Shown in pieces: positions 364 through 59,977 of a stretch of 64,000 nt of DNA. The position numbers and the translations under genes were made by a program. The DNA is from Heterodontus francisci. Taxonomy: Eukaryota. Under the pieces are notes generated by a model, which did no database searches, was not told the DNA's origin, and worked only from the letters and a program-made list of their open reading frames with translations. The stretch covers positions 496,001-560,000 of the forward strand of contig NW_027142279.1 of the NCBI RefSeq assembly GCF_036365525.1, in the 5' to 3' direction. How positions within the stretch are numbered: position 1 is the stretch's first letter; every line of letters starts with the position of its first letter.

Positions 364-1025
364 ATCACTAGCAGCACAGTAATACACCGCCCTGTCAGTC
401 TGATCCACCCTCAGTATTTTCAGGCTGCAGGTTTTAAGATCGGGTCTGGTGGCTTTAAATCTCTCCTTGAAACCCTCTTCAGGCCTGGAATCAGAGGTGC
501 CAATCGAGGTCACTATGAGCTGTAACCCTGCTCCGCTCTGCTGGCGATACCAGTACATGTAGCTCTCGCTGGTGTCATTCTGGAAACAGTGCATTTCCAC
601 CGTTTTCCCCTCTGCGACCGTCAGCCGGTTCCCCCACTGGGTAACGAGAGCGCTCCTGGACCGGGCTGTGGAGGAACATGAGAAACAGATCGGGTCAAAG
701 AGAACAGACACAATGAGGAGAGAGAGAGAGCTTTAATGGTAAACCTCCCGATGCACACTACAGTCGATCAGCCCGCTGACGCCCCAGCACAGGGGTCATG
801 TGCTGATTCCCAGAATCGCTGGGCACAACTGCAGTGGCGCTAAATAACGACACTTGTCCTCAACAGTAAAACCAAACCAGTAAATCTCTAACTGATTGGA
901 GCCCTTCGATATCAACAGGAATTGTGTCTCAAAGCTGATTAACTGGGGCCTGAATTTCCCTCCAAGTAGGAACAGTAACCTGGGAGCAGCAGAAACAGTA
1001 GATGGAGGTAAACAGTACACAGCAT
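364..1025 (-). CDS. TRBV: TCR beta-type V gene segment V1 (family A); leader exon 980-1025, V exon 364-665
   Basis: Leader MLCTVYLHLLFLLLP (46 nt, phase 1, GT donor). Acceptor ccacag at 666-671. V exon has C...YMYWYRQ...DRAVYYCAASD, directly followed by a 23-RSS. Assignment to beta rather than another locus is inferred from the motifs. Confidence 0.9.
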
Positions 1026-3227: not shown

Positions 3228-3266
3228 TGTTTTTGACCCAGCCCTGCACCTGTTTGAATCACTGTG
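3228..3266 (-). other. 23-RSS of V2
   Basis: CACAGTG (3260-3266), 23 nt, TCAAAAACA (3228-3236). Confidence 0.95.
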
Positions 3267-4436
3267 ATCACTAGCAGCACAGTAATACACCGCCCTGTCA
3301 GTCTGATCCACCCTCAGTATTTTCAGGCTGCAGGATTTAAAATCGGGTCTGGTGACTTTAAATCTCTCCTTGAAACCCTCTTCAGGCCTGGGATCAGATG
3401 TACCAATCGAGTTCACTATGAGCTGTAACCCTGCTCCGCTCTGCTGGCGATACCAGTACATGTAACTCTCGCCGGTGTCATTCTGGAAACAGTGCATTTC
3501 CGCAGTTGTCCCCTCTGCGACCATCAACCGGTTCCCCCACTGAGTAAGGAGGGCACTCCTGGACCGGGCTGTGGAGGAACATGAGAAACAGATCGGATCA
3601 AACATTTAAATAGGCACAGTAAGGACAGAGAGATAATTAATGTTTAAAATTGCGATGCACGCCACAGTCCATCAGTTCACTGAACAAACATACAGACCGG
3701 TCATCTCTGGAGGCTCAGTATCCGCTGGGCACACCTGCAGCTGCGCCCAAATCGCTGCACTTGGCCTCAGTGTCCATTGCTGGGGAGGACAAAAGTCAGC
3801 CAGCTTGCCCACTTTCCCCGCCGCCAACACTGGCTCTATTGCAATGTCCTTGCACCGTCCGCCAGTCCAGCGACACTGACTGGGTCAGCTCATTGACATT
3901 GTGGGCAATGTGCCCAAAATCAGCTGCCTAGGACTGGCCAACCTTCAGGTAATGGGCAGGGCGAACAAGGCAAGTTACATTTATTATTGAACAGAGTAAG
4001 AAACAATTAGGACCCAAAAGAAAGGCATTTACAGAGCCAGAGAATGATACAGCTCAGCAGGAAGCCCTTCGGCCAATCGCGACTGTGCTAGCTCTTTGAA
4101 GAACCTTTGCAAATATTCCAACTCCCCTGCTCTTTACCCAGATTCCTGCAAATATTGCCCATTCAGGAATTTATCCAGGTCTCTCTTTTTTTTTTAAAAG
4201 AAAAGGTTGCAATTGCATCCACCCGGCTTACAGACAATGTATTTCAGAGCAGAACAATTCACTGCTTCAAACAGTGAAGAATCCTCCAAGTGATCGAACT
4301 GTTTGAAGACTTTCTGCAACAACGAGAATTGATGTTGCCCAGAAGCAGATTAATCCGGGCCCGGATTTCCCTAAAAGTAGGAGCAGTAACCTGGGAGCAG
4401 CAGAAACAGTAGATGGAGGTAAACAGTACACAGCAT
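3267..4436 (-). CDS. TRBV: TCR beta-type V gene segment V2 (family A); leader exon 4391-4436, V exon 3267-3568
   Basis: Close paralog of V1 with the same 46-nt leader and 302-nt V exon ending YYCAASD. Intron enlarged to 822 bp, partly by a CR1 3' end at about 4030-4290. Confidence 0.9.
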
Positions 4437-5263: not shown

Positions 5264-8200
5264 GATGTGGGAATTTGAAGCCTCCTATCTCAGCACCCTT
5301 GTCACACTCTGCAGACCTCTCTACCTCCCTCTGCGCCTCCTCTGGTGTTGAAGTGCAGAGATGCCGTCACTGCATGACCGTCCAATAGAACCTCTTGTTT
5401 CTCAATGCAAAGCACATTGTTCCTCCTTAGTTGTGAAGAATATTGAATGTACAGCAATGACTTGCAATGTGCAAGCAATTACAGAGGTTCGGGAATCTCC
5501 TGAAGGGTGCAATGTGTGGAGGTGTAGATTATTTGGAGAGTTTGGAAGAGTTAGGACTGTCTTCCTCTTTACAGAGAAGGTGAAGAGGAGATTCAATAGA
5601 GGTGTTCAGAGCCATGAGGGGTTTTGACAGAGTAAGTAGTGAGACACTGTTTGCAGTGACAGGAGGGTCGGTAACCAGAGGGGCACAGATTTGAGATCAT
5701 GGGCAAAAGAACCAGTGTCCCCTCGTCCTTGTACCATCAACTCATGGGAACAGATTTTCTTTGTCTACTTTACCTAAACCTCTCTTCATTTTGTACACTT
5801 CTATCAAATCTCCCCTCAATTTCCTTTGCTCCAAGGAGAACAAACCACAGATTCAACAACCTAACCATGTAGCTAAAATCTCTCATCCCTGGAACCATTC
5901 CAGTAAATCTCCTCTGCACCCTCTCAAGGACCCTACATCCGTCCTCAAGTGTGGTGACCAGAACTGGACTCAATACACAAGTTGGGGCCTAACAAGAGCC
6001 TTATAAATGTTCAGCTCAATCTCCCTGCTTTTGTACTTTACACCTCTATTTATAAATCTCGAGATCCCATAAGCTTTGTGAACCTCTCTCTCCATATGTC
6101 CTGCCACCTTCAAAGATATATGCACATTAACCCCCAGGTCCCTCTGTCCTTGAACACTCTTTAGGCCTGTGTCATTAAGTCTGTATTTCCTCTCTGTCTC
6201 CCTTCTGCCAAAATGTATCACCTGATAACAATGTAGTTCACTGTTAACTGCCTCTGAAATGGGCTAGCAAGTCATTCAGTTCAGGGCAATTCGGCATAGG
6301 TAATGAATGCTGACCTTGTCAGTAATGTGCACATCCCTGAATATGTGCTCCTTTATATAAAATGCCTCCTTCTCCATTTTTCTTTCACTGTTTTCTGACT
6401 TTGCTTCCCCTCTTCACTTCCTTCCGATCATCTGTTTCAGTATATCACAAGTGTTGCTCAAACCAGTCACTATGAACGAGCAGACTTGGGGAAATCCAAT
6501 TGTCTATTCTGTGTGGAATGGTTATGATTTGAATCTGTTTCAGAGTTAGTGGAATTGACTATTAGGTAGATTGGTCAAGTCACTGCTGTGTTGCTCGCTC
6601 AGTCTTTTCAGAAGCAAGTGGGACTCAGGCTGCGGTGGAGCTCCATCCCCACCTCGTGGCTGTAATGCGTAACTACAGGCACCTGTGATTTGCACAGTGC
6701 AATTGATAAAATAGGCATTCTGAAGACATGCTTTGAAATTGCTCAGTCTTCCCATTTTTTATCCATGGCTTCGGCTGCTGACGCTGGTGACATCGAATTA
6801 GGCCGGCGTGAATCTCCAGGGGACATGCGTTCGAATCCCACCAGGTCAGATGGTGGAATTTAAATTCAATCGATGAAAAAATACAATTATTTCATTGGAA
6901 AATCTGCAATTGAAAGCTGGTCTCAGTTAAGGCGCCCTGACACCCAGCTGGCTCACTCATGTCTTTCAGGGAAGGGAATCCGCCGTCCTTACCTGGTCTG
7001 GCCTGCATGTGACTCCAGACCCACAGAACACAAGAAATAGGAGCAGGTGTAGACCATATATCCCATCGAGCCTGCTCCGTCATTCAATACAATCATGGCT
7101 GATCTTGGGTTTCAATTTCACTTTCCTGCCTGCTCCCCATATCCCTTGATTTCCTGAGGGATCAAAAATACCATCTTTAAATTTATTCAATGAAGGACCA
7201 TCCACAACACTCTGGGATAGAGAATTCCAAAGTTTCACAACCCTTTGAGTGAAGTCATTTCTCCTCATCTCAGTCCGGAATGATTGATCCCTTATCCTGA
7301 GATTTCTCACTGCCTCTTTTCTTGAAAAGCCGTGTAACATTTGTCAGATTTCAATCCGATGGGACCATTCCTGAATCTAAGGAATTCTGGAAAATCATAA
7401 CCAGCGCCCCCACTCTCTCTGCAGCTATCTCTTTTAGAACTCTGGTATATAATCCATCTGTTCCAGGGGACTTGTCAGATTTTAATCCCTCAAGTTTCTC
7501 CAAAAGTTTTTCTCAATTGATATGAATATCCTTAATTTCCTCACTCTTTTTAGGCCCCAGATAACTGCCTATTTCTGGGATGGAACTTGTGTCTTCAACT
7601 GTGAAGACAGGCACAAAATATTAGTTCAATTCCCCTGCTATTTCCCCATTCCCCATGATGATTTTTCCTGTCTTTACCTCGAAAGAACCAACGTCAGCTT
7701 TAGCTACTCTCTTACTTTTTATGTAAAAGCTCCTACCATCTGTTTTTATATTGCTGGTTAGCTTATTCTCATATTTTATTCCCACATCCGATGAAAGAAC
7801 ATAAACAATGTCTTCACCCAGCCCTATCAGTATGACGTGCTATTTCCTGCTCCCTAATGTTTTTATCCAGCATTCATTTACATATATTTGGTTATACACA
7901 TCATTTCTTTCTGTGTGCAAGTGAATTCCACATTCTCACCACTCTGTATAAATTCATTTCTTGGAGTTATTAGTGGGTATGATGTATTCATGACCTTCCC
8001 TACAAGTGCAGGCATATTCTTTTCCTCTACCCTATCATATTCCTTCATAATCTTGAACAGGTCTATCAGGTCACCCTCAGCATTGTCCTCAGCACTTCAG
8101 GTGTCGTGTAAACAAAGTATATAGAGCTGAGAATTGTGCACAGTGCTCCAGGTGTGGTCTAACCGAGGTACGTGTTGAAGAGCCGTTCTATGAACCATTA

Positions 8201-8377
8201 TACAGGTGTGGGCACAGAGAGTGTGTGTTGCCTATCTGGAGGTTGTGGGGAGTTAGAACATGGGCGTTCTGCCAGTCGACCGGGCACTGAACAGATGCAG
8301 ATCCGCATCCGATCAGCCAGGGCTGCTCTTCACCGAATGCTGGGTTAAATGCACCCGTTTGAAGGGAGACGTGTGAG

Positions 8378-8416
8378 GGTTTTTGTCAAGGCGGACAATG
8401 ACTCTGAACCGTTGTG
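8378..8416 (-). other. 23-RSS of V3
   Basis: Variant heptamer CACAACG (8410-8416), 23 nt, perfect nonamer ACAAAAACC (8378-8386). Confidence 0.9.
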
Positions 8417-9150
8417 TCCCATCACCAGCTGCACAGAAATACACCGCCTCGTCCGTGGCGTTCACACTCTCGATCGTCAGAGTGGATTTCTTATTGTCCA
8501 GAGTCCTGGTAATAACAAACCCGCTCTTAATACCCTCTTCATACTGAGGTTCATTGCTTAGATAGTTAAACCCGATTAACAGGAATCCTCTGCTGGGGGA
8601 CTGACGATACCAGTACATGTAGCTGCGAACTGTTCCTTTCTGCAGACAGTTCATTTCCACGGGTCCTGGTTGTTTAAAAGCCAGTGACTGAGGCCATTGA
8701 TGTATCACCTCACCCCGGCAAACACCTAGAAAGAGAAATTAGAGGGAATGAACTAGTATCGATCGAGTTACAATTGAGACGATGGGCGTCGGTGTTGCAC
8801 CAAATTAACGACAGAAATTCGGTCTGTGTCCTAATTTCCTACAAGAACCTGGATCTTTACAACTGTAAGATAGAATTGTGGAATCCACAAGCTTGCAAGT
8901 GGGTGCAAACATTGAAGAGTTAACATCATATTAATAACACTTGTCTTCCCAAACTAGGGGACAGATGAATGAGTTCACTGTCTGATATGAAATAATCGAT
9001 TACTGATTTAACAAGTCACTGCCGCTCAGTTTTATTGAGATCATTAATCATCCCTTTCAGTTGATCAAATGTTGAAGAGTGATTGGGACAGAATTTTAAC
9101 CTACTCAGCGCCAGAATGGAAATAGCAAAGAGGATGAAACTGAAAGGCAT
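8417..9150 (-). CDS. TRBV: TCR beta-type V gene segment V3 (family B); leader 9105-9150, V exon 8417-8725
   Basis: Leader MPFSFILFAISILAL with A|GTAGGT donor. Acceptor ttctag. V exon SVCRG-EVIHQWP..MNC..YMYWYRQ..DEAVYFCAAGDG. Confidence 0.88.
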
Positions 9151-10182
9151 GTTTGCGGTGGATCTGAGAGACTTTCTGCTGGTTACTCTGGGTTTTAAGG
9201 GAGGGAGACAGATGAGGTGTTGGCAGAGCGGATCGTCATAAGAGGAAGCTACCTCAAGGCAATGATCCCCGCCCCTACCTTTAAGTTGTCCCCCATTCTT
9301 TCGTTTGCTTCCTTCCGCCCCTTTCCACTTTTTTCTTCTCTCCATTTTCCTCCTTCCACCCCACTTTCTACTCCTCTGCAAATATCTTCACTCTCTTCCC
9401 TTTGTGAGATTGCTTTCATGCCGAGGCGAGGGGAACTGTGTTGGAGAGGGTGGGTGAAAATACAAGGGGCGGTATAACGATAGCTGCTTTGGGTGACTCC
9501 AGAGGTAACGGTGCAGAACAGGGGATTATTAACATCCTTTTGCAAATTAAAAGCAGTAGTGGAGGAAGAGAAGGTGGATAGTTCGATGGCAGCGGAGGCG
9601 GCTCATATAACATCACTGTAAAGTGGAAATCTAACTGCATTTAGCATTGAAAGTGGAAAGATTGCAGAAGCAGAGGAATTGGCTCATTGATCAGCGGCGC
9701 CAAAGCCTGTGGTGGCGCGAAATACCGTGGAGCCATAGCGCCGACCAGTGGCAGCATTGTGCAACTGCAACAAGCTGTGTTTGTTACTTTCCCAGTGAAA
9801 CCCATTGCTCTTTCGGAGAGCCAGTGCAGACACGATGGGCCGAATGTCCTCCTCCTGCGCTGTAACAATTCAGCGATTATGAATGTCGATGACAACTGGC
9901 AATATTTTGATTTCAATTGTTAACCAGATGATCAATATTGTGTAATATTTGTGATGGATTCAAATGTTACAGGATGATATTCTAAGATACTAAGATGTAT
10001 CTATCCATTGGTCTGTTTATATCTCTGTCTTTCAGGCTACCGAGCCATCTATTTATCTCTAGAAGAGCTGGTTGGCAGCTGAAAGATACAGATGTAGACT
10101 CGCAAAGGCAACCAGACAAAGTCAGACCCCGAGACGGCGCGGAGATGAACAGAAGAGGATAGCTGTAGCAATGAGCCTGAGT

Positions 10183-10221
10183 GGTTATTGTCATAGTGTG
10201 GAAGGGGTTTGAAGCATTGTG
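10183..10221 (-). other. 23-RSS of V4
   Basis: CACAATG (10215-10221), 23 nt, ACAATAACC (10183-10191). Confidence 0.9.
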
Positions 10222-11026
10222 CTCCTTCAGTGGCGGCGCAGTAATACATCGCCCTATCTCCGGGGCCTGCAGTCTGAATTTTCAGAGTGCTCCTTTGAAT
10301 GTCAGCTCTCACCACCTCGAATCGCCTCTCGAACTCTTCCTGGAAAGTAGGCTTGCTCCCAGACACGTCCGTCACCAGAAGCTGGGGGCCTTGCCCGTGG
10401 TGCTGGCGGTACCAGAGCATGGTGATGTGCTCCGTGTCCTTCTGCTGACAGGTCAGTGTTGCGCTCTCCCCACGTCCCACAGTCAGTTCACTGGGTGTCT
10501 GGGACACTGAGGCACATCGACAACAATCTAGGGAAGTGGGAAGGGGGGAGAAAGGAAAGGGTCCAAGATTCAGTTAACGCAGCCACATCAGGAAAAGTCT
10601 GCAGTGCATCCCAGTGCATTTTCTGATCGAATATGAGCTCAGACAATCAGCTAACATGTGAAGGAGGCCGTTCATCCCAGCAGGCCTGTGCTAGCTCTTT
10701 GAAAAAGCTATGCAATGAGTTCATTCCCCAACTTTTCTCATCTCAATTTAGTTTTAAATGTAATTTATTCCAGTTTTCTAAGAATAAGAGTGAGGTCCTG
10801 TCTGGCAGATCATGCACCGGTTATAGAAGTAAATATCAGTGCAAAGTAACTCAATGTCTGTTTCTATATGAAGGGGACAATGACAACATCAATGAACGAT
10901 ATTACATACGGATCATTAAGTGTATTTCTTAAAGAAACTCAGGTTAAATGAAACAAGAATAGCATTCTGAAGTTACTTACGCGGCATCAGCAATGAAAAG
11001 GCCCAGAGCAGGAGTTTGAATTCCAT
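10222..11026 (-). CDS. TRBV: TCR beta-type V gene segment V4 (family C); leader 10981-11026, V exon 10222-10527
   Basis: Leader MEFKLLLWAFSLLMP with C|GTAAGT donor. Acceptor ccctag. V exon HCCRCASVSQTP..LTC..MLWYRQ..DRAMYYCAATEG. Confidence 0.88.
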
Positions 11027-11539
11027 CTTGGTGAGGTAACCAAGATGTGGTCTGGCAGCAGGAGAGGTGGGAAGAATGTGGCGCCTCTTGTTGAAGACAT
11101 GGGGGAAAAGGTGCAACATAGACGACTGGAAATGGCGTCACGGATATTGCAAGCCTGAAAGTAAGGGAGAGGAAGTGAGTTATCATGGCAGGGGATTGCT
11201 TCAACTGTTGAGCTTCCAGTCCACGGTCATCTGAGATTGAAGAGTTGTTAACTCGCTCAGATCCTCGTTCCACAAAACAGTTGTGGGGCATGAGTGGAAT
11301 TACTTCTATTTCATTCAATGGGTTGAGTAGGGTCCACGGTGTGATCAGGTATTAGTTGGTATAGGGGAGCCCAGAGCAGGAGTTGCTGAATAAAATAACG
11401 CCTACAAACGTGTGATCAGAGCCATCGATTTAAAATAAACCACAGTTATTCTGGGAGTCGATTGCAGATCTGTTAGCAAATTCTAAAATATTCTATTAGC
11501 AATAGCATATGTGAACAGAAATGCGAGGAGGGCAGAGTC

Positions 11540-12298
11540 AGAACAGCAGAGGAGGAGCACGTTCGGCCCTTCGAGTCCGTGTGAGCTCTCTGTACGGCAA
11601 TCCAATTAGTCCCATGCCCCAAGCAAGTTTATTTCTCTCCAAGTTTACATCCAATTACATTTTGAAATCATTCATTCTCTCTGCTTCCAGCATCCAGGTA
11701 GGCAGTGAGTTCCACATCATTACACCGCGCTGTGTAAACAAAATATGCCTCACATCGCCCCTGTATCTCTTCCCCAAAACCTTACATCTGTGTCCCCTAG
11801 TCCTTGTATCCATCAGCTCATGGGAACAGATTTTCTTTGTCTATTTTCCGCAACCTCTCTTCATTTTGTACACTTCTGTCAAATCTCCCCTCAATTTCCT
11901 TTGCTCCAAGGAGAACAACCCCAGCTTCACCAAACTAACCATGTCGCTAAAATCTCTCATCCCTGGAACCATCCCGGTAAATCTCCTTTACACCCTCTCA
12001 AGGACCCTACATCCTTCCTAAAGTGTGGTGACCCGAACCGGGCTCAATACTCAAGTTGGGGCCTAACCAAAACCTCATATATGTTGAGCATAACCACGCT
12101 GCTTTTGTACTTTATACCTCCATTCATGAATCCCAAGATCCCATAAGCTTCGTGAACCTCTCTCTCAATATGTCCTGCCACCTTCAAAGATCTATGCACA
12201 TTAACCCCCAGGTCCCTCTGTCCTTGAACACTCTTTAGGCCTATGTCATTAAGTCAGTAATTCCTCTCTGTCTCCCTTCTGCCAAAATGCATCACCTG
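11540..12298 (-). mobile_element. 5'-truncated CR1 LINE, duplicated with the 6.2-kb unit (also ~5716-6225 and ~17720-18480)
   Basis: Minus-strand translation gives LERVQRRFT.M.PG and VMHFGRR..Y.LN..RDLGV, typical of the CR1 ORF2 C-terminus. Confidence 0.85.
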
Positions 12299-12939
12299 AT
12301 AGCAATGTAGTTCACTGTTAACTGCCTCTGAAATGGGCTAGCAAGTCATTCAGTTAAGGGCAGTTCGGCATAGGCAATGAATGCTGACCTTGTCAGTGAT
12401 GTGCGCATCCCTGAATGTGTTTTTATATAAAATGCCTCCTTCTTCATTTTTCTTTCACTGTTTTCTCACTTTGCTTCCCCTCTTTACTTCCTTCAGATCA
12501 TCTGTTTTAGTATATCACAAGTGTTGCTCAAACCATTCACTATGAACGAGCAGACTTGGGGAAATCCAATTGTCTATTTTGTGTGGAATGGTTATGATTT
12601 TAATCTGTTCCAGAGTTAGTGGAATTGACTATTTGGTAGATTGGTCAAGTCACTGCTGCTTTGCTCACTCAGTCTTCACAGAAGCAAGTGGGACTCAGGC
12701 TGCGGTGGAGCTCCATCCCCACCTCGTGGCTGTCATGTGTAACTACAGGCACCTGTGGTTTGCACAGTGCAATTGATAAAATAGGCATTATGAAGACATG
12801 CTTTGAAATTGCTCCGTCTTCCCATTTTTTATCCATTGCTTCGGCTGCTGACGCTGGTGACATCGAATTAGATCGAATTTGCAGCACAGATTCAGGCTAT
12901 TCGGCCCGATGGGACCATGTTCCAGAAGAGCCTGGGGCA

Positions 12940-13207
12940 GATGGCGGTGTACTTGTCATGTCTCTGAGCTGGTAATCCAGAGGATGGGGATAATCTCCAG
13001 GGGACATGCGTTCGAATCCCACCAGGTCAGATGGCGGAATTTAAATTCAATTAATGAATAAATATAATTATTTCATCAGAAAATCTGCAATTGAAAGCTA
13101 GTCTCAGTTAAGGGGCCCTGTCACCCAGCTGGCTCACTCATGTCTTTTAGTGAAGGAAATCCGCCGTCCTTACCTGGTCTGGTCTACATGTGACTCCAGA
13201 CCCACAG
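12940..13207 (+). mobile_element. tRNA-derived shark SINE, 5' part (copies at ~6808-7027 and ~19120-19387)
   Basis: Pol III B-box-like GTTCGAATCC at about 13010 in a body matching a recalled elasmobranch SINE. Interrupted at 13207 by an antisense CR1 3' end. Confidence 0.65.
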
Positions 13208-14545
13208 AACACAAGAAATAGGAGCAGGTGTAGACCATATATCCCATCGAGCTTGCTCCATCATTCAATACAATCGTGGCTGATCTTGGGCTTCAATTCC
13301 ACTTTCCTGCCTACTCCCCATATCCCTTGATTTCCTGAGGGATCAGAAATCCCAGCCTTAAATGTATTCAATGAAGGAGCATCCACAACACTCTAGGGTA
13401 GAAAACTCCAAAGATTCACAACCCTTTGAGTGAAGCAATTTCTCCTCATCTCAGTTCGGAATGATTGATCCCCTGTCCTGAGATTTCTCATTACCTCCTT
13501 TTTTGAAAAGCCGTGTAACATTTGTCAGCGTTCAATCCGATGGCACCATTCCTGAATCTAAGGAATTCTGGAAAATCATAGCCAGTGCCTCCACTATCTC
13601 TGCAGCTATCTCTTTTAGAACCCTGGGATGTAATCCATCTGCTCCAGGGGACTTGTCGCATTTTAATCCCTCAAATTTCTCGTAGACTTTTTCTCAATTG
13701 ATATGAAAATCCTTAATTGCCTCACTCTTTTTAGCCCCCAGATAACTTCCTATTTCTGGTATGGAACTTGTGTCTTCTACTGTGAAGACAGACACAAAAT
13801 ATTTTTTCAATTCCCCTATTCCCCATGATAATTTCTCCTGTCTTTACCTCTAAGGGACCAACATCAACTTTAGCTACTCTCTTACTTTTTATGTAAAAGC
13901 TCCCACCATCTGTTTTTATATTGCTGGTTAGCTTATTCGCAAATTTTATTCCCACATCCAATGAAAGAAACTAAACCATGTCTTCATCCAGCCCTGTCAG
14001 TATGACGTGCTATTTCCTACTCCCTAATGTTTTTATCCAGCATCCATTTACATATATCTGTTTGTACACATCATTTATTTCTGTGTGCCAGCGAATTCCA
14101 CATTCTCACCACTGTATAAATTCATTTCTTGGAGTTATTAGTGAGTATGATGTATTCATGACCTTCCCGACAAGTGCAGGCATCTTCTCTACCTCTACCC
14201 TATTATATTCCTTCATAATCTTGAACACCTCTAACAGGTCACCCTCAGCATTGTCCTCAGCACTTCAGGTGTCGTCTAAACAAAGCCTGTAGAGATAAGA
14301 ATTATGCACAGAGCTCCAGGTGTGGTCTAACCGAGGTACGGGTTGAAGAGCCGTTCGATGAACCATTATACAGGTGTGGGCAGAGAAAGTGTGTGTTGTC
14401 TGTCTGGAGGTTGTGGGGAGTTAGAACATGGGCGTTCTGCCACTCGAACGGGCACTGAACAGGTGCAGATCCGCATCCGATCAGCCAGGGCTGCTCTTCA
14501 CCGAATGCTGGGTTAAATGCACCCGTTTGAAGGGAAACGTGTGAG

Positions 14546-14584
14546 GGTTTTTGTCAAGGCGGCCAATGACTCTGAACCGCTGTG
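14546..14584 (-). other. 23-RSS of V5
   Basis: CACAGCG (14578-14584), 23 nt, ACAAAAACC (14546-14554). Confidence 0.92.
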
Positions 14585-15318
14585 TCCCATCACCAGCTGC
14601 ACAGAAATACACCGCCTCGTCCGTGGCGTTCACACTCTCCATCGTCAGAGTGGATTTCTTATTGTTCAGAGTCCTGGTAATAACAAACCCGCTCTTAAAT
14701 CCATCTTCATACTGAGGTTCACTGCCGAGGTAAACAGAGCCCATTGAGAGGAATCCTCTGCCGGGGGACTGACGATACCAGGACATGTAGTCGCGAATCT
14801 TTCCGTTCTGCAGACAGTTCATTTCCACGGGTCCTGGTTGTTTAACAGCCAGTGACTGAGGCCATTGATGTATCACATCACACCGGCAAACACCTAGAAA
14901 GAGAAATTAGAGGGAATGAACTAGTATCGATGGAGTTACAATTGAGACGATGGGTGTCGGTGTTGCACCAAATTAACGACGGAAATTCGGTCTGTGTCCT
15001 AATTTCCTACAAGTACCTGGATCTTTACAAATGTAAAATAGAATCGTGGAATCCACAAGTTTGCAAGTGGGTGCAAACATTAAAGAGTTATCATCATATT
15101 AATAACACTTGTCTTCCCAAACTAGGGGACAGATGAATGAGTTCACTGTCTGATATGAAATAATCGATTACTGATTTCACAGGTCACCGCTGCTCAGTTT
15201 TATTGAGATCATTAATCATCCCTTTCAGTTGATCAAATGTAGAAGAGTGATTGGGACAGAATCTTAACCTACTCAGCGCCAGAAGGGAAATAGCAAAGAC
15301 GATGAAACTGAAAGGCAT
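14585..15318 (-). CDS. TRBV: TCR beta-type V gene segment V5 (family B); leader 15273-15318, V exon 14585-14893
   Basis: Duplicate of V3 with intact splice sites and an open frame to YFCAAGDG. Confidence 0.88.
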
Positions 15319-16365
15319 GTTTGCGGTGGATCTGAGAGACTTTCTGCTGGTTACTCTGGGTTTTAAGGGAGGGAGAGAGATGAGGTGTAGGCAGAGCGGA
15401 TCGTCATCAGAGGAAGTTATCTCAAGGCAATGATCCCCGCCCCTACCTTTAAGTTGTATCCCATTCTTTTGTTTGCTTCCTTCCGCCCCTTTCCACTTGT
15501 TTCTTCTCTCCATTTCCCTCCTTCCACCCCACCTTCTACTCTGCTGCCAATATCTTCACTCTCTTCCCTTTGTGAGCTTGCTTTCATGCTGAATCGAGGG
15601 AAATTTTGAAGGTAGCGAGGTGTTGGAGAGGGTAGGTGAAAAAAACAAGGGGCGGTGCAACGATAGCTGCTTTGAGTGACTCCAGAGCTTATGGCGCACA
15701 ACAGGGGATTATTAACATCCTTTTGCAAATTAAAATCAGTAGTGGAGGAAGAGAAGGTGGATAGTTCGATGGCAGCGGCGGCGGCTCATATAACATCACT
15801 GTAAAGTGGCAATCTAACTGCATTTAGCCTTTAAAGTGAAAAGATTGCAGAAGCAGAGGAATTGACTCATTGATCAGCGGCGCCAAAGCCTGTGGTGGCG
15901 CGAAATATAGTGGAGCCACTGCGCCGACCAGTGGCAGCATGGTGCAACTGCAACAAGCTGTGTTTGTTACTTTCCCAGTGAAACCCATTGCTCTTTCGGA
16001 GAGCCAGTGCAGACACGATGGGCCGAATGGCCTACTTCTGTGCTGTAACAATTCAGCGATTATGAATGTCGATGACAACTGGCAATATTTTGATTTCAAT
16101 TGTTAACCAGATGATCAATATTGTGTAATATTTGTGATGGATTCAAATGTTACAGGATGATATTCGAAGATACTAAGATGTATCTATCCATTGGTCTGTT
16201 TATAACTCTGTCTTTCAGGCTACCGAGCCATCTATTTATCTCTATAAGAGCTGGTTGGCAGCTGAAAGATACAGATGTAGACTCGCAAAGGCAACCAGAC
16301 AAAGTCAGACCCCGAGACGGCGAGGAGATGAACAGAAGAGGATAGCTGTAGCAATGAACCTGAGT

Positions 16366-16404
16366 GGTTATTGTCATAGTGTGGAAGGGGTTTGAAGCAT
16401 TGTG
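16366..16404 (-). other. 23-RSS of V6
   Basis: CACAATG (16398-16404), 23 nt, ACAATAACC (16366-16374). Confidence 0.9.
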
Positions 16405-17209
16405 CTCCTTCAGTGGCGGCGCAGTAATACATCGCCCTATCTCCGGGGCCTGCAGTCTGAATTTTCAGAGTGCTCCTTTGAATGTCAGCTCTCACCACCT
16501 CGAATCCAATCTCGAACCCTTCCTGGAAAGCCGGCTTGCTCCCAGACACGTCCGTCACCAGAAGCTCGGGGCCTTGCCTGTGGTGCTGGCGGTACCAGAG
16601 CATGGTGATGTGCTCCGTGTCCTTCTGCTGACAGGTCAGTGTTGCGCTCTCCCCATGTCCCAACGTCAGTTCACTGGGTGTCTGGGACACTGAGGCGCAT
16701 CGACAACAATCGAGGGCAGTGGGAAGGGGGGAGAAAGGAAAGGGTCCAAGATTCAGTTAACGCAGCCACATCAGGAAAAGTCTGCAGTGCATCCCAGTGC
16801 ATTTTCTGATCGAATATGAGCTCAGACAATCATCCAACATGTGAAGGAGGCCGTTCATCCCAGCAGGCCTGTGCTAGCTCTTTGAAAAAGCTATGCAATG
16901 AGTTCATTCCCCAACTTTTCTCATCTCAATTTAGTTTTAAATGTAATTTATTCCAGTTTTCTAAGAATAAGAGTGAGGTCCTGTCTGGCAGATCATGCAC
17001 CGGTTATAGAAGCAAATATCAGTGCAAAGTAACTCAATGTCTGTTTCTATATGAAGGGGACAATGACAACATCAATGAACGATATTACATACGGATCATT
17101 AAGTGTATTTCTTAAAGAAACTCAGGTTAAATGAAACAATAATAGCATTCTGAAGTTACTTACGCGGCATCAGCAATGAAAAGGCCCAGAGCAGGAGTTT
17201 GAATTCCAT
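16405..17209 (-). pseudogene. TRBV: TCR beta-type V segment V6 (family C), open frame but mutated splice acceptor; leader 17164-17209, V exon 16405-16710
   Basis: Duplicate of V4. The acceptor reads ...ccctCG| (16711-16712) instead of ...ccctAG|. Leader, frame and RSS are otherwise intact. Confidence 0.75.
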
Positions 17210-20111
17210 CTTGGTGAGGTAACCAAGATGTGGTCTGGCAGCAGGAGAGGTGGGAAGAATGTGGCACCTCTTGTTGAAGACATGGGGGAAAAAGTGCAAC
17301 ATAGACGACTGGAAATGGCGTCACGGATATTGCAAGCCTGAAAGTAAGGGAGAGGAAGTGAGTTATCATGGCAGGGGATTGCTTCAACTGTTGAGCTTCC
17401 AGTCCACGGTCATCTGAGATTGAAGTGTTGTTAACTCGCTCAGATCCTCGTTCCACAAAACAATTGTGGGGCATGAGTGGAATTACTTCTATTTCATTCA
17501 ATGGGTTGAGTAGGGTCCACGGTGTGATCAGGTATTAGTTGGTATAGGGGAGCCCAGAGCAGGAGTTGCTGAATAAAATAACGCCTACAAACGTGTGATC
17601 AGAGCCATCGATTTAAAATAAACCACAGTTATTCTGGGAGTCGATTGCAAATCTGTTAGCGAATTCTAAAATATTCTATTAGCAATAGCATATGTGAACA
17701 GAAATGCGAGTAGGGCAGAGTCAGAACAGCAGAGGAGGAGCACGTTCGGCCCTTCGAGTCCGTGTGAGCTCTCTGTACAGCAATCCAGTTAGTCCCATTC
17801 CCCAAGCAAGTTTATTTCTCTCCAAGTTCACATCCAATTACATTTTGAAATCATTCATTCTCTCTGCTTCCAGCATCCAGGTAGGCAGTGAGTTCCACAT
17901 CATTACACCGCGCTGCGTAAACAAAATATGCCTCACATCACCCCTGTATCTCTTCCCCAAAACCTTCCATCTGTGTCCCCTAGTCCTTGTATCCATCAGC
18001 TCATGGGAACAGATTTTCTTTGTCTATTTTCCTAAACCTCTCTTCATTTTGTGCACTTCTGTCAAATCTCCCCTCAATTTCCTATGCTCCAAGGAGAACA
18101 ACCACAGCTTCACCAAACTAACCATGCAGCTAAAATCTCTCATCCCTGGAACCATCCCGGTAGATCGCCTCTGCGCCCTCTCAAGGACCTTACATCCTTC
18201 CCAAAGTGTGGTGACCAGAATCGGGCTCAATGCTCAAGTTGGGGCCGAACCAAAACCTCATATATGTTGAGCATAACTGCCCTGCTTTTGTACTTTATAC
18301 CTCTATTCATGAATCCCAAGATCCCATAAGCTTCGTGAACCTCTATCTCAATATGTCCTGCCACCTTCAGTGATCTATGCACATTAACCCCCAGGTCCCT
18401 CTGTCCTTGAACACTCTTCAGGCCTGTGTCATTAAGTCTGTATTTCCTCTATCTTCCTTCTGCCAAAATGCATCACCTGATAGCAATGTATTTCACTGTT
18501 AACTGCCTCTGAAATGGGCTAGCAAGTCATTCAGTTCAGGGCAATTCGGCATAGGTAATGAATGCTGACATTGTCAGTGATATGCACTTCCCTTAATATG
18601 TGTTTTTATATAAAATTCCTCCTTCTCCATTTTTCTTTCACTGTTTTCTGACTTTGCTTCTCTTTACTTCCTTCCGATCATCTGTTTTAGTATATCACAA
18701 GTGTTGCTCAAACCATTCACTATGAACGAGCAGACTTGGGGAAATCCAATTGTCTATTTTGTGTGGAATGGTTATGATTCTAATCTGTTTCAGTGTTAGT
18801 GGAATTGACTATTAGGTAGATTGGTCAAGTCACTGCTGCTTTGCTCGCTCAGTCTTCACAGAAGCAAGTGGGACTCAGGCTGCGGTGGAGCTCCATCCCC
18901 ATCTCGTGGCTGTAATGTGTAACTACAGGCACCTGAGATTTGCAAAGTGCAATCGATAAAATAGGCATTGTGAAGACATGCTTTGAAATTTCTCCGTCTT
19001 CCCATTTTTTATCCATTGCTTTGGCTGGTGTCGCTAGTGACATCGAATTAGATTTAATATGCAGCACAAATTCAGGCTATTCGTCCCGATGGGACCATGT
19101 TCCAGACTAGCCTGGGGCAGATGGCGGTGTCGATGTCATGTCACTGAGCTGGTAATCCAGAGGCTAGAGTGAATCTCCAGGGGACATGCGTTCGAATCCC
19201 ACCAGGTCAGATGGTGGAATTTAAATTCAATGAATGAATAAATACAATTATTTCATTGGAAAATCTGCAATTGAATGCTAGTCTCAGTTAAGGTGCCCTG
19301 ACACCCAGCTGGCTCACTCATGTCTTTTAGGGAAGGGAATCCGCCGTACTTACCTGGTCTGGCCTGCATGTTACTCCAGACCCACAGAACACAAGAAATA
19401 GGAGCAGGTGTAGACCATATATCCCATTGAGCCTGCTCCGTCATTCAATACAATCATGGCTGATCTTGGTTTCCAATTCCACTTTCCTGCCTGCTCCCCA
19501 TATCCCTTGATTTCCTGAGAGATCAAAAATCCCAGCCTTAAATATATTCAATGAAGGAGCATCCACAACACTCTGGGATAGAGAATTCCAAAGATTCACA
19601 ACACTTTGAGTGAAGTCATTTCTCCTCATCTCAGTCCGGAATGATTGATCCCTTATCCTGAGATTTCTCACTAGCTCCTTTTTTGAAAAGCCGTGTAACA
19701 TTTGTCAGCTTTCAATCTGATGGGACTATTCCTGAATCTAAGGAATTCTGGAAAATCATAGCCAGCGCATCCACTCTCTCTGCAGCTATCTCTTTTAGAA
19801 CTCTAGTATGTAATCCATCTGGTCCAGGGGACTTGTCAGATTTTAATCCCTCAAGTTTCTCCAAGACTTTTTCTCATTTTATAAGAATATCCTTAATTTC
19901 CTCACTCTTTTTAGGCCCCAGATTACTGCCTATTTCTGGTATGGAACTTGTGTCTTCTACTGTGAAGACAGGAACAAAATATTAGTTCAATACCCCTGCC
20001 ATTTCCTCATTCCCCATGATGATTTTTCCTGTCTTTACCTCTAAAGAAACAACGTCAACTTTAGCTACTCCCATGCTTTTTATGTAAAAACTCCAACCAT
20101 CTGTTTTTATG

Positions 20112-21000
20112 CTCAACAACAACCTCAACAGGAAAAAATCACCAACCAATTCAACAACAACGTCAGCAGAATGAAAACACCAACAACCTCAACAGCAGTA
20201 AAACACCAACTTGTTCAACAACAACCTCGACAGAAGAGATCCACCAACAAATGCTGCAATTTCTATAGGATAAAATCACCAACAAATTCAACAACAACCT
20301 CAACAGTGGAAAATCACCAACAAATTCAACAACAACCTCAACAGGATAAAAGCTCCAAAAAATTCAACAACAACCTCGACAGGAGTGAAACACCAACAAT
20401 TTCAACAACAACCTCAACAGGAGAGAAGCAACAACAAATTTAACATCAACTTCAGCAGGATAAAATCAACAACAAATTCAACAACAACCTCAACAGGAGA
20501 GAAACACCAACAAATGCAACACCAATTTCAGTAGGATAAAACACCAGCAAATTCAGCAACAACCTCAATAGGAGAAAAACACCAACAAATTCGACAACAA
20601 CCTCAACAGGAGGAAATCACCAACAAATTCGACAACAACCTCAACAGGGGAGAAACACCAACAAATTCAACAACAATCTCAACACAGAAAATTATCAACA
20701 AATTCAACAACAATTTCAGTAGGATAAAACACCAGCATATTCAGCAACAACCTCAACAGGAGAGAAACACCAACAGAACGACAACAACCTCAACAGGAGA
20801 AAATCACCAACAAATTCGACAACAACCTCAACAGGAGAGAAACACCAACAAATTCAGCAACAACCTCAACAAGAGAGAAACACCAACAAATTCAACAACA
20901 ACGTCAACAGGAGAAAGCCACCAACAAATTCAACAACAACCGCAACAGGAGAAAAACGCAAACAAATTTAACAACATCTTCAGTAGGATAAAAACACTAA
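20112..21000 (+). repeat. CAA-rich minisatellite, ~36-37-bp unit (caacaaattcaacaacaacctcaacaggagaaaacac)
   Basis: Direct tandem copies. Related arrays at ~24950-25290 (+), ~27095-27780 (reverse complement) and ~28980-29430 (+). Confidence 0.9.
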
Positions 21001-22366
21001 CATTATCAGAGGGATAGATCAGAGCAAGCTAATGGGATGTTTTACACTAGCTGCACAGCTGTTTGATAGAGTACAAAGGGAGAAATTATTTCCCCTGCTG
21101 GAGCTTCAGAGAACAGAGAACTCAGATATAGGATCATGACTAACAGTTTCAGAGGGATAGATCAGGAGAATCTGTTTAAACCAGTGAGTTATAATATGTA
21201 ACACTCTGCCTGAAAGTGAGAGGGAAGCAGATTCAAGAGGAAGTTTCAAAAAGGCAGTTGGACAAAACCTTGAAGTTGAAACGAAATGCAGGGCGATTGG
21301 GGAGGAGCAGGGAGTGGGAGAAATTGAATAGGGGAGATGCAAAACTCTTTTGGGCCTCCTTATCTCGAGAGACAATGGATATGCGCCCGGAGGTGGTCAG
21401 AGGGTCACCAATATAAGGCAGTTACTAATAAATCCAATAGGCAATTCAGAATCAATGACTTTACCCAGGGAGTGGGGAGAATCTGGAACCCGCATTAACA
21501 GAGTGGGTTTAGGCCACTAGTGGAGATGCATTTAAGTGGGAGACTATATGAGGACATGTGGGATAAAGGTACAGAAGGAGGTGCTGATAGGGTAAGATGC
21601 AGAGGGATGGAAGGAGGATGATATGTGTTGCATTGGGTAGCTCTTTCGAACAGCCGGGCCAGGCTCAATGGGCTGAATGGCCTTTGCCTCTGCTGCATGA
21701 TTCTATAAACAAATAAGACGCATCAAGTTGCTTGTTTGTATTAGGCAGATCAAAATTAATTTCCCCTGTGCTAAACAACAATTCAAGGGTTATGTTTTAC
21801 ATTGGGGTGAAATCTTAGATACTTTGAAAAGCGACAGTGTCATGAAGAAGTGGGTTAACTATTTTAAACAGATGCTCAAACCGCCGTCAGGAGGCAGGTG
21901 TTCCAGTGAGAGACCTATCTGGGGAGGTGTCTCACTTTTGCATTGTATGAATCATTGGGGACATGTACAATAGGGAGCTATGTGTAACTCTTGTCCTAAT
22001 CCACCGACAGCTCATTCAACAGGACCATGAACCCATTTACCCCACCTCGGAATCTGTTCTTTACAGGTCGAGGCTGCCTTAACGAGAAGGATCTGAGCAC
22101 ATTGCTGCAGCATTTTTAATAATTCATAATGTATTGATGTACTCTGAGTCGAAGGAGAGCAAGAAGATGAAACTATCAGTAAAATACAAATCATGATATA
22201 TCAATAATTAAACTGGTATGGTGTAAAGAATGGTGTTCGATAGATGATAAACGTCAGATATATGGTGGATGCATATTTAGAGAGGTGAGAGACAGGTAGA
22301 TAGATAACTCGGTGACAAATATGTATATGATCGAGGTACATAGATAGACAAATAGTGCAATGTAAC

Positions 22367-22502
22367 NNNNNNNNNNNNNNNNNNNNNNNNNNNNNNNNNN
22401 NNNNNNNNNNNNNNNNNNNNNNNNNNNNNNNNNNNNNNNNNNNNNNNNNNNNNNNNNNNNNNNNNNNNNNNNNNNNNNNNNNNNNNNNNNNNNNNNNNNN
22501 NN
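22367..22502. other. Assembly gap (136 N)
   Basis: Run of N. Confidence 1.
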
Positions 22503-22596
22503 GCGACACAGAAACCCGCAGATAGTCAGAGAGACAGAAAGACACTGAGATAGACAGACAGGTTGAACACCCACAAGTGCTTTCCTCCCCCTTTAG

Positions 22597-22635
22597 AGTT
22601 TTTGCTGAACTCCGGCGCCTTTCTGAGTCACTGTG
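22597..22635 (-). other. 23-RSS of V7
   Basis: CACAGTG (22629-22635), 23 nt, GCAAAAACT (22597-22605). Confidence 0.92.
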
Positions 22636-22936
22636 CAGACTCCAGGCACAGTAATACACGGCTGATTGATTCACCAACAGGCTGGAGGACTCCAGGTAAA
22701 AATGGGTGTTGTCGGGTCTCCTGGCGGTGAAACCGTCCACCTCACCGGAGGCGGTGACCGTTCCGGCAGAGGTGGAATAGAAAAGGTTCTCGTGCTCACG
22801 GTCCGGATGCCACCGGTACCAGTAGACATCGGAGCCAGCATCTGCCTTTGTGTAAATACACTGGATACTGACTGGAGAGCCTGGGGAATAGGATATGGAA
22901 GCGGGAACCTGCTGGATCAACATGGCCCCCACATCT

Positions 22937-22968
<32 letters not shown>

Positions 22969-23591
22969 TAAACCCAGGGACAATGTTTAAATTGATATCG
23001 GCCACGAAGAGGGGAGAGGCACGATGGGCTGAATGACCTACTGTGTGCCCTAAATGTCCCGTGTTTCTATGTAAGAAGGGAGAGGTGGGAGATGGGGAGC
23101 TGCAAAGAGAGAGAGAGAGACATAGAGTGAAAAAGAGTGAGAGAAAAAGAGAGAAGCAGAGAGAGAGAGAGAGAGAGAGAATGAAAAAGAGCGAGAGAAA
23201 ATCAGAGAAGCAGAGAGAGAGAGAGAGAGAGAGAGAGGGAAGCACAGACAGAGGGAGAAAAACAGCAACATTCTAGACATGGGCAACAGACATGAAGGAG
23301 CTAATAGGACAGGGAGAGAGAGCAAGAGAGACAGAGAGAAAGGGAGAGTGGGAGGGACAGACATAGAGGAACAAATATCGTTAGACAGAGAGAAAGAGAG
23401 AGAGAGGAAGGAATACAAAACGAGAAAGAGAGCAGCTGAAATAACTATCACAGTGACGGTGCCTAGTAAGGGGGTAAACCCCCAATGGGGTCACACAGGC
23501 AAAGAGCAGTGAGGATGACTGGCATCTCTCAGTCGAGTTCCACCTTACCCCTTAACACCAGCAACACAACCCAGAGGTGAGACACAGTCAT
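22636..23591 (-). CDS. TRBV: TCR beta-type V gene segment V7 (family D, CAWS-type); leader 23549-23591, V exon 22636-22934
   Basis: Leader MTVSHLWVVLLVLR with G|GTAAGG donor. Acceptor ttacag after a (CT)n tract. V exon DVGAMLIQQVP..IQC..VYWYRW..NQSAVYYCAWSL. Confidence 0.87.
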
Positions 23592-25446
23592 CTCTGGAGG
23601 GAGACAGATCCATGTGTTCATTGTGTGAAATCACTGAGCTGTTTTACTGCAGAATATCTAAATGTTCTGAGTGACATTTACTGGCCCCTCCTCCCCAGTG
23701 TTTCATGTTCCCATTAGTGGGAGGGAAGGGTGAGGGGGTGGGTTGCAAATTCCTGATGGTTCATTGACTCCCACATGTTGACATGTTGACAGGTCATTTC
23801 CGGGGCTGAGCTAAGGAGGCCTCAGGGGAATCCGGGGGGCCTCTGGTCACTATTAAAGACCAGACATGATGAAGTCTAACTGCGTTTTTCTGTGTGGGTG
23901 AAATAGTTGAGAAGTGAAACATTTCAGAAGCAGCCAAGTTGACCTGTGGAGCTGCTGTGGGTGAAGCTCACTCTGTCTGAGCATGTTCTGGGCAGCGGCT
24001 GCAGTGGAGTAACACTGGCACCTAGTGGCTCCAGCTGCAACTGCAAGCACCGATTCTGCAGGCGTTTCAGTGTCAGACCCTGAACTGGTTTCAGTCATTA
24101 GTTATATTCTCCTACTCGACTCGTGTTGGCGCTTGTGGCATAGAACCAGATGCAAGTCAATGCACAGATCGGCGCCATTCGGCCCCACAGCTCTCTGCTT
24201 CACTCCAGCCTCAACCAGTCAAATACATTTTGAAGTGCAGTCACTGTTGTAATGCAGGGAAGGAGGCAGACAAGCTGCAAGATCAAGTGCAGGGTTATTC
24301 AGAAAGAACAGGGAGTGGGAGTAATTGGACAGGGAGGATGGAAACCAGGGATCAAAAATGTAAGGTAGTCCTTAATAAATCCAATTGGGAATTCAGGAGG
24401 AGGTTCTTTAACCCAGGGAGCGGTGAGAATGTGGAATTACAGACCAAATGGAATGGGTTGAGGTCGAATAGAGACGATGCAGTTAAGGGGGAGCTGAATA
24501 AATACATGAGTGAGAAAGGAATAGAAGAATCTGTTGATAGGGTAAGATGAAGAAAGATGGGAGGAGGTCGCTCTTTCGAGCTGCCAGGCCAGGATCGATG
24601 GGCTGAATGGCCTGGATTTGACCTGCATGACACGATGACCCAATAAGACCCGTCAGCCTGCTGCCTTGTTTCGGGGCCAAGACAGTTTTATTTCACCCCC
24701 TTCTGCTAAACGGGAGTTATAGGGTTAAGTTCTTCACCGCACTGAACTCCAGTCATTGTGAAAATTCTTCACTGTCACTGGGTCAAAATCCTGAAACTCC
24801 CTTCCTAACAGCACTGTGGGTTTACCTACCCTACATGACTGCAGTGGTTCAAGAAGGCAGCTCAGCACCACCTTCTCAATTAGACGATTAGGGATGGACA
24901 ATAAATGCTGACCACAACCAAAATCTCATGAATGAATTAAAAAAGAGAAAATAACCTCAGCAGGGGGGAAAAAACTCCAAAAAATACAACAACATGAAAA
25001 ACCAAATTGAACAACAACTGAAGCAGGGAAGGAAACAAGTACAACAAAAACCTCAGCAGGGAAAACACCAACAAACACAACAACGACCTCAAAAGGAAAA
25101 CAACGCCAACAAATTCAACAACAGATCAGCAGGAGATTCAAACACCAACAAATTCAACAACAGATCAGCAGAAGATTCAAGCACTAACAAATTCAACAAC
25201 CTCAGTCGGAGAAAAGCACCAGCAAATACAACAACAAATACAACAACAACTTCAGCAGCAGATCTATACCAACAAATGCAACAGCAACTACTGGCAGCCA
25301 ATGGTAGAGAGCGGGGCGTGGTAGGAAGGTAGGAAGGTGTTGGACAAACCTGAATCACTTGCTTGAGTCTTCATGTGGCTTCTCACAAGACTCAACTCTC
25401 TTCTTTCCACTGATTTCCCAATTGCAGGATAAGCTTCCAGTGGAAG

Positions 25447-25939
25447 ATGTATCTGTTACTGAGTCTCATGGTCTTATTTCAAAGTAAGAGATCTTTCTCA
25501 CCTCCACCCCACACCCCCATTGTTTGTGTTAACAGCTCTCTTTCTTATTTTCTTTCTCTCTATCTTTCTCTCCTTCCTTCATTCTTCACATCCCAGATTG
25601 TCCCTGTTCACTGACCTTCTTCTCTCCCGGTCTCTTCCTTCAGGCGCGATCTCAGCGAGGGTCCACCAGACTCCCACCGCCGTCTCCAGATTTCCTGGGG
25701 AGGGAGTGGGACTGGAGTGCCGTGTGGAGGGTGAGAGTAGCGGTTACATGTTCTGGTACAGACAGGACCTGGGGAAGGAGCTGCGGCTGATGTATTACTC
25801 CGCAGTTACACCAAGTGTGAACTCAGAGGGGACGGTGGAGGGTTTCACTGCCAAACGACCGACTGGTTCCCAGTTCAACCTGGAGTCCTCCAGCCTGCAG
25901 GAGAATCGCTCGGCGCTGTATTTCTGTGCCTGGAGTCTG
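25447..25939 (+). CDS. TRBV: TCR beta-type V gene segment V8 (family D, CAWS-type), inverted orientation; leader 25447-25483, V exon 25644-25939
   Basis: Leader MYLLLSLMVLFQ with A|GTAAGA donor. Acceptor cttcag ending 25643. V exon SAISARVHQTP..LEC..YMFWYRQDLGKELRLMYYS..NRSALYFCAWSL. Confidence 0.9.
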
Positions 25940-25978
25940 CACAGTGACTCAGAGAGATGGAGCAGTTCAACAAAAACA
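25940..25978 (+). other. 23-RSS of V8
   Basis: CACAGTG (25940-25946), 23 nt, ACAAAAACA (25970-25978). Confidence 0.95.
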
Positions 25979-59766: not shown

Positions 59767-59780
59767 CCACTAGGTGGCGC
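59767..59780 (+). promoter_or_regulatory. Consensus CTCF core motif
   Basis: CCACTAGGTGGCGC matches CCASYAGRKGGCRS fully. Confidence 0.65.
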
Positions 59781-59977
59781 TGTACTAGCACATGCGCAAA
59801 TGTACACTGTTCCAATTAAACGTCATGGTCTGCCACGTGCAGGCAGCTGCCAGGACTAAAGATGGCGCCGGTCAAATAATCACAAAGGTGGGTGGAGGGT
59901 GGGAGGTGGAGCTGGGGGTCTGGGGGGGGAGGGGGGAATGGGATTTAGTTACAGTGTTTGAAACCCTTCAGCTCTTT

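Follow-up and report, generated by a model that had tools for sequence, protein, structure and literature searches.

To our knowledge, oriented CTCF sites at antigen-receptor loci have been described almost only in mouse and human, and titles and abstract openings in the literature on shark T-cell receptor (TCR) organization and on CTCF mention no study of such sites at a shark TCR locus. The TCR-beta locus of Heterodontus francisci raises the question of whether its variable (V) genes carry comparable elements and, if so, what these elements face. The stretch analyzed (the window) is 64,000 nucleotides (nt) of contig C2233 (positions 496001-560000) in a 6.0-Gb assembly, and contains six CTCF-like sites upstream of V genes. 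A preliminary description had taken them for three unrelated kinds of site, all directed toward presumed diversity (D), joining (J), and constant (C) genes. On balance we favor the reading that the six sites are duplicated descendants of one V-beta-upstream element, likely bound by CTCF, that would serve as loop anchors on the V side, directed at the D-J-C genes of their own unit.

The six cores lie on the minus strand at the positions first described, with the upstream 9-mers and gaps of 9, 9, and 8 nt that had been assigned to them, and their sequences are as quoted except for the copy at 18896, which is one base off the quoted core. They fall into three families, F1, F2, and F3, because the region carries a tandem duplication of about 6.2 kb, in which 5715-13919 is repeated at 11790-20110 with roughly 93% identity. 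In F1a (6635..6677, minus strand), the upstream motif (6669-6677) is followed by a 9-nt spacer, a 19-mer core (6644-6662) scoring 11.7 bits, and the sequence CTCCAC (6635-6640). F1b (12705..12747, minus; 11.7 bits) is its copy in the tandem duplication, and F1c (18885..18927, minus; 10.6 bits) lies in a partial third repeat. F2a (9727..9769, minus) combines a perfect upstream hexamer with a weak core of 9.5 bits; it precedes the Vb exon by about 1.05 kb and is 0.47 kb past the Vc exon. Its copy F2b (15910..15952, minus) scored 7.4 bits. F3 (24004..24045, minus; 14.0 bits) has an 8-nt spacer; Vd and Ve are divergent and enclose it, with the Vd exon about 1.1 kb downstream of the site.

Scores were obtained with an approximate CTCF core matrix resembling MA0139.1. 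By this matrix the six cores resemble the 15-bp sequence CCACCAG(G/A)GGGCGC with 1-3 mismatches (7.4-14.0 bits, p 1.4e-4 to 6e-6), and the plus strand at the same sites scored at most 2.1 bits. The upstream motif has 0-1 mismatches in TGCAGT at 9, 9, and 8 nt in F1, F2, and F3, respectively. When a bipartite site was defined as a core of at least 7 bits with TGCAGT (a single mismatch being allowed) placed 8 or 9 nt ahead of CCAC, positions 1-27000 of the window contained these six sites only; 150 dinucleotide shuffles averaged 0.15 sites and never exceeded 2. The bipartite CTCF-like appearance of the sites also held up, the chance, repeat, and paralogue tests being concordant. None of F1-F3 lies inside the repeats found in 200 kb of control DNA, and the nearest upstream V end is 472-3946 bp away, outside the roughly 100 bp next to a V recombination signal sequence (RSS). 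A 7SL/Alu-like origin of F1, suggested by an 11-base resemblance, was dropped, as the control DNA held no such match.

The claim that the three kinds of site are unrelated did not survive alignment of the DNA outside the motif. Using only the flank 3' of the motif, the local alignment score was 61 for F1-F3 (shuffled, 20.9±2.8) and 34 for F2-F3 (shuffled, 21.2±2.7); for F1-F2 the score of 22 was not significant (shuffled, 19.8±2.7). Homology extends about 200 bp beyond the motif, and CTCCAC stands at a fixed offset 3' of the core in all three families. Among the copies listed in 864 kb, 23 of 23 lie 0.8-3.1 kb upstream of a co-oriented V exon. F1, F2, and F3 are diverged copies of one ancient V-upstream element. 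With a single element whose strand is tied to the co-duplicated V gene, the common strand of the six sites represents one orientation event, not three.

Paralogues collected by flank anchors (40 regions chosen by Vb position, 864 kb, and contig C49) gave 36, 28, and 12 unique copies of F1, F2, and F3, respectively. Parsimony placed 2 changes in the 27 columns of the upstream motif versus 19 in the 26 columns of the spacer (permutation p 3e-4), and only 4 of 42 near-invariant matrix columns and upstream-hexamer columns were variable versus 13 expected from the flanks (p 8e-4). The upstream 9-mer, CCAC, and CTCCAC were kept across families, the rest of the core having drifted differently in each. 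Changes in the F1 core fall mostly at tolerated positions, damaging ones occurring in 2 of 36 copies, and 14 of the 15 columns of the F2 core, three non-consensus bases included, are unchanged in 28 of 28 unique copies. In the 864 kb, the upstream motif stands at 9 nt in 28 distinct cores and at 8 nt in 3, with at most 5 distinct cores at any other spacing from 2 to 17 nt; many of these 31 cores are repeat variants, and they represent about five families. A conserved upstream motif next to a drifting spacer reads as a CTCF-like footprint. The families F4, F7, F8a, F8c, and F11, introduced below, had 3-7 unique copies each, which gave the conservation test no power, and the F4 row was dropped after its upstream anchor fell in a microsatellite with 366 unrelated matches.

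The D-J-C genes were found on the side that the sites had been said to face, in what is, as proposed, a shark TCR-beta locus: V genes with 23-RSSs, D genes with 12- and 23-RSSs, J genes with 12-RSSs, and a C-beta exon are all present. They lie 9-34 kb left of the window (C2233:462283-487121), all on the minus strand, so that the six minus-strand sites face them. Their order is D1 (487.1 kb, 12-RSS/23-RSS), seven J genes, D2, twelve J genes, and the C exon (462.3 kb), making two D-J blocks for a single C in the unit adjoining the window. A second V block, inverted and on the plus strand, lies beyond C at 342-430 kb.

A composite pattern, which does not cover F3, had 134 matches in the genome; none of the 100 listed lies on a chromosome-scale contig, all being on TCR-type contigs or on C352. 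The best 40 matches of F3 comprise 36 on TCR contigs and 4 on C49. Excluding the matches on C352 (5), C876 (2), and C49 (4) leaves 93 composite-pattern and 36 F3 copies. Of these 129 listed copies, 121 are directed at the nearest D-J-C: 62 lie on its 5' (deletional) side and 59 on its inverted 3' side, and some copies are as much as 263 kb from their center. In each of the 14 intervals that contain both strands, orientation switches once, from left-facing to right-facing, which is the divergent arrangement. The orientation of F1-F3 is the V genes' own polarity. Among the other strong or bipartite families, F4, the F5/F6 arrays, and F11 also have this polarity.

Stronger motifs are present around the D-J-C genes. 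In about 249 kb of non-redundant locus DNA, 10 families reach 16 bits or more, compared with 0.97 expected (one of the 10 is borne on a long interspersed nuclear element, LINE), and 600 kb of other DNA had no site of this strength. F7 (18.5 bits) faces back from a point about 7.2 kb 3' of C; it was found in 19 places, which is every C not cut by a contig end, once per unit with fixed polarity. F8a and F8b (16.9 bits) lie 3.3-4.6 kb 5' of D1 and face the 5' V block, and F8c (20.7 bits), on their V side, faces D and was found in 23 places, again once per unit with fixed polarity. In one of three units examined, F8b is absent and F8a is weaker. In mouse Tcrb, 18 V-region CTCF-binding elements (CBEs) are convergent on 5'PC, CBE1 (3 kb 5' of D1), and CBE3 (PMC10772921). 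Strong candidate motifs flank each shark D-J-C at positions like those of mouse CBE1 and CBE3.

These arrangements suggest a model in which CTCF would be held mainly by the strong upstream motif, the core being weak; fingers 9-11 would read the upstream motif and make up for the mismatches, 1-3 per core. After loading near V promoters or the recombination center, cohesin would stall between the sites of 5'-block V genes and the V-facing F8a, F8b, and F7, and the sites of inverted 3'-block V genes would pair with the D-facing F8c. Because both loop domains would contain the D-J-C genes, V genes of both sides could reach them, deletional and inversional alike, by diffusion inside the loop, as proposed for mouse Tcrb. 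The element is copied and inverted along with its V gene, and for this reason each new unit would inherit the polarity. For a locus that is multi-unit and two-sided, linear scanning as at the immunoglobulin heavy-chain locus (Igh) appears a poor model, and looping with diffusion in the manner of mouse Tcrb a better one.

Several results weigh against this reading. Each core is mismatched at near-invariant matrix columns, and scores of 7.4-14 bits are weak; between families the cores agree at 11-13 of 19 positions (two pairs, hand-counted), no better than the aligned flank. The spacer and key-column tests were chosen after a first, unselected comparison of all upstream and core columns with the flank, which was null for F1 (p 0.51) and gave p 0.028 for F2 and p 0.07 for F3 (with 3 copies). 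CTCCAC is no known CTCF motif, and GCTCCA or ACTCCA at the inferred offset matches GAGCCA at only 3-4 of 6 positions. One family amounts to one orientation event, and the strand bias was not significant across independent families whose motifs lie no more than 3 kb from a V exon: 13 families of at least 10 bits were co-oriented and 10 anti-oriented (p 0.68), and of those reaching 13 bits the numbers were 7 and 3 (p 0.34). Eight of the 129 listed copies do not face the nearest center; four of them point to another center at a similar distance, three to a contig end within 131 kb, and one to no known center. In the F9 arrays, 42 of 45 copies are anti-oriented to the nearby V gene. The statement that all sites point to D-J-C stands for the six and fails for the best motif of the window, F10 (59764-59782, 22.6 bits), which is on the plus strand and faces away. 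F8c, on the V side of the V-facing motifs, forms with them a convergent pair that reverses the order in mouse, where CBE2 is described between CBE1 and D1 (bioRxiv 10.1101/2024.10.13.618029). The distances in the window are only 15-33 kb, and loops may be dispensable there. Finally, a TCR-gamma-like locus (C5:199.32-199.52 Mb, 200 kb) had no site of at least 16 bits and mixed strands. One family on its plus strand, of 12-15 bits, faces J-C from about 0.3 kb upstream of a single V family; the locus neither supports nor refutes the proposal. This locus is single, with V genes ending in CAYW and followed by 23-RSSs, five J genes, and one C gene.

The alternative that survives best retains CTCF binding and makes it local, the sites being promoter-upstream insulators or nucleosome-phasing barriers against surrounding repeats, with a polarity acquired passively and no part in V choice. 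A single ancestral element whose strand is always that of the downstream V gene, with no strand bias at the level of families, is what such a role would leave, and the short span from the window V genes to D1 (9-39 kb), the 765-bp piece with F3 that lies without a V gene around an alpha-tubulin array on C49, and the report that sites with the upstream motif are typical of enhancer-blocking insulators (PMC12885311) are in keeping with it. However, the independent families F4, F5/F6, and F11 also follow V polarity, every D-J-C is bounded by strong motifs of opposite orientation in positions resembling those in mouse, and some copies are up to 263 kb from their center. We regard a purely local role as rather unlikely.

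A second alternative, which we consider quite improbable, is that the conserved module is read by another factor or is a decaying former CTCF site, its likeness to CTCF sites being ancestral or incidental. The core has drifted by family while the upstream 9-mer, CCAC, and CTCCAC stayed, homology runs some 200 bp past the motif, the non-consensus bases of F2 are fixed, and 2 of 36 F1 copies have damaging core changes, all of which could be expected of such a module. On the other hand, the combination of 8- or 9-nt spacing, a free spacer, and an invariant upstream motif is the known geometry of CTCF (PMC9004084, PMC10484683), and the F1 core changed mostly where changes are tolerated. That the motifs are chance matches, or were carried by transposons and amplified by segmental duplication, is very improbable indeed: the six sites are one lineage in a repeat-rich region and one strong family is LINE-borne, but shuffling predicts 0.15 sites, the sites lie outside repeats, matches among those listed are confined to TCR-type contigs, the upstream motif has changed less than the spacer, and F1 has no depth in sequencing runs of four other organisms, in which repeats are very deep. 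In those organisms (n=4), contigs on window 6300-10700 at 80% likeness covered repeats only, leaving F1 and most V exons uncovered.

Returning to the reading of V-side anchors, we conclude that the set of sites is real, probably functional, weak, and non-independent, within a two-sided, multi-unit scaffold resembling that of mouse Tcrb.

Eight V exons in the window look intact and have 23-RSSs; all but Ve are on the minus strand. These seven are Va1 (364..645, ending CAASD, with the 23-RSS heptamer at 363), Va2 (3267..3548, 23-RSS at 3266), Vb1 (8418..8696, ending CAAGD, 23-RSS at 8416), Vc1 (10223..10501, ending CAATE, 23-RSS at 10221), Vb2 (14586..14864, 23-RSS at 14584), Vc2 (16406..16684, 23-RSS at 16404), and Vd (22636..22917, ending CAWSL, 23-RSS at 22635). 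Ve (25658..25939, plus, ending CAWSL, 23-RSS at 25940) is inverted relative to the V block. The head-to-head Vd/Ve pair (22636-25939) ends the V block of the window and several inverted blocks as well; Ve points away from the D-J-C of its own unit and, in 3' blocks, toward the neighboring unit. The CAWSL ends of Vd and Ve are like those of the inverted mammalian TRBV30/Trbv31. In one sequencing run, guessed to be RNA, contigs cover the Vb exon and leader and not most of the upstream DNA; another contig is identical to Vc over 10228-10527 and extends beyond both ends, a weak hint of a spliced, rearranged transcript. Among the 24 runs listed, none is a ChIP, CUT&RUN, or ATAC library, and no run with matching sequence is recorded as RNA.

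Of the 60 PDB matches listed for the C exon, most are TCR beta chains, and the six best are immunoglobulin-type chains. The genome contains 21 C-beta exons (98-100% identity) on six small contigs (C407, C761, C779, C1317, C1675, and C2233), in both orientations, and the multi-unit TCR-beta region spans several Mb. Because the start of C1317 repeats the unit of the window almost exactly, part of the 21-23 units may be allelic. Multicluster TCR-beta genes were reportedly described in horn shark in papers of the 1990s, and the multi-unit layout may therefore not be new. About 18 kb 3' of C, at 444.4 kb, the opposite strand carries a decayed C-like exon, and another is at 183.8 kb.

Near the right end of the window, a cassette at 59551-59870 divides the 5' V genes into proximal and distal blocks. 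It begins with F9 (59551..59695, minus), absent from the preliminary description and made of three units of about 53 bp, each with upstream motif and core at 9-nt spacing (10.8-13.8 bits), which forms a divergent pair with F10 (59764..59782, plus), the strongest core of the window; a weaker core follows. CpG-rich words in the cassette are NRF1-, E-box-, and YY1-like. Outside the window, F5 consists of 45-bp tandem arrays of strong CTCF-like cores, in up to about 35 copies, that always share the orientation of the V gene and start some 70 bp behind the RSSs of the Vg family (for example, C2233:372569-372883 and 668972-670547). Copies also occur on contigs of other kinds. Five F1 copies, 27-37 kb apart, lie at C352:151835-284826, on a contig without a C-beta match. 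At C49:11.685-11.823 Mb, where no V genes are present, tandemly arrayed alpha-tubulin-like genes are flanked by F9 arrays and by a 765-bp segment that contains F3 and shares 92% identity with window 23927-24691; F3 is directed inward on each side, and F9 is directed outward. Among the repeats of the window are 36-38-bp CAA-rich minisatellite arrays dispersed in both orientations around the Vd/Ve pair (20097-21015, 24929-25287, 27105-27800, and 29009-29400), a long element, LINE-like by reading of its sequence, with a 161-bp tandem repeat at its 5' end (32626-38480), and, after it, about 10 kb of GA-rich simple repeat (38900-49000).

The presence in a shark of a layout that matches mouse Tcrb at the level of sequence would place the origin of loop-assisted V(D)J assembly at the base of the jawed vertebrates, and a locus folded in this way would mean that sharks fold TCR-beta much as mice do. 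The two-sided, multi-unit layout offers a natural test of scanning versus diffusion, since about half of the sites serve V genes that join by inversion only. It is open to study with exact, short elements, and it raises the question of how one TCR-beta is chosen among many units. A broader proposal, which we put forward tentatively as possible and not probable, is that the TCR-beta CTCF scaffold (V anchors, CBE1- and CBE3-like partners, and inverted 3' V genes) predates the split between sharks and bony fish, and that the shark multiplied the whole folding module into at least 20 two-sided units, each insulated by divergent polarity, with V genes joining their own D-J-C by deletion or inversion. 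If true, allelic exclusion would have to choose among dozens of self-contained loop domains.

As DNA elements, the sites resemble known bipartite CTCF sites, which are contacted by zinc fingers 3-7 and 9-11, in their TGCAG-type motif at two spacings one base apart, their free spacer, and their pairing of a weak core with a strong upstream motif. The CTCF upstream motif, with a consensus like CTGCAGTTTC (PMC12885311), stands 5 or 6 bp before the 19-bp core, which is 8 or 9 before CCAC (PMC9004084); the spacer corresponds to finger 8 (PMC10484683), and upstream motifs are described as stabilizing weak cores (PMC13470930). The shark sites differ in their mismatches at near-invariant columns and in the extra CTCCAC 3' of the core, which has a partial likeness to the finger-1 motif GAGCCA, described 2 bp after the core. 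Like the RSS-proximal CBEs of mouse proximal VH genes (PMC5859386, Table 2), they are linked to V genes and face the recombination center, but their nearest RSS side is 0.47-3.9 kb away and a V exon follows about 1-3 kb downstream; the RSS-proximal type is represented in the shark by another family, the F5 arrays behind Vg RSSs.

At the level of the locus, salmonid TRB has 3-4 V(n)-D-J-C units in inverted pairs (PMC10464911) and shares with the shark the repetition of complete units, some inverted; the shark has far more units, near-identical C exons, two D-J blocks per C, and V genes on both sides. Inverted 3' TRBV genes are described in amniotes, salmonids, and some amphibians (PMC11754216), and a 2019 review gives cartilaginous-fish TCR genes in translocon form (PMC6795676). 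Borders of topologically associating domains in skate carry inward-facing CTCF motifs (PMC10115646), so the CTCF machinery can be expected in sharks. The closest comparison is with mouse Tcrb, in which CBE3 precedes the inverted Trbv31 and inversional joining is proposed to proceed by diffusion within loops (PMC10772921, PMC5859386). The shark differs in the number of its C-beta units, at least 21 distributed over six contigs, each unit having V blocks to either side; in the share of listed sites, about half, that belong to inverted 3' blocks; and in V-to-D distances that are often tens of kb. Its sites are candidates predicted from motifs. In both loci, the V-associated motifs, several of them near promoters, are all directed at D-J-C; other motifs face V from two positions, about 3 kb 5' of D1 and between C and the inverted V genes on the 3' side; one D-facing motif lies between V and D; and inversional V genes are present 3' of C.

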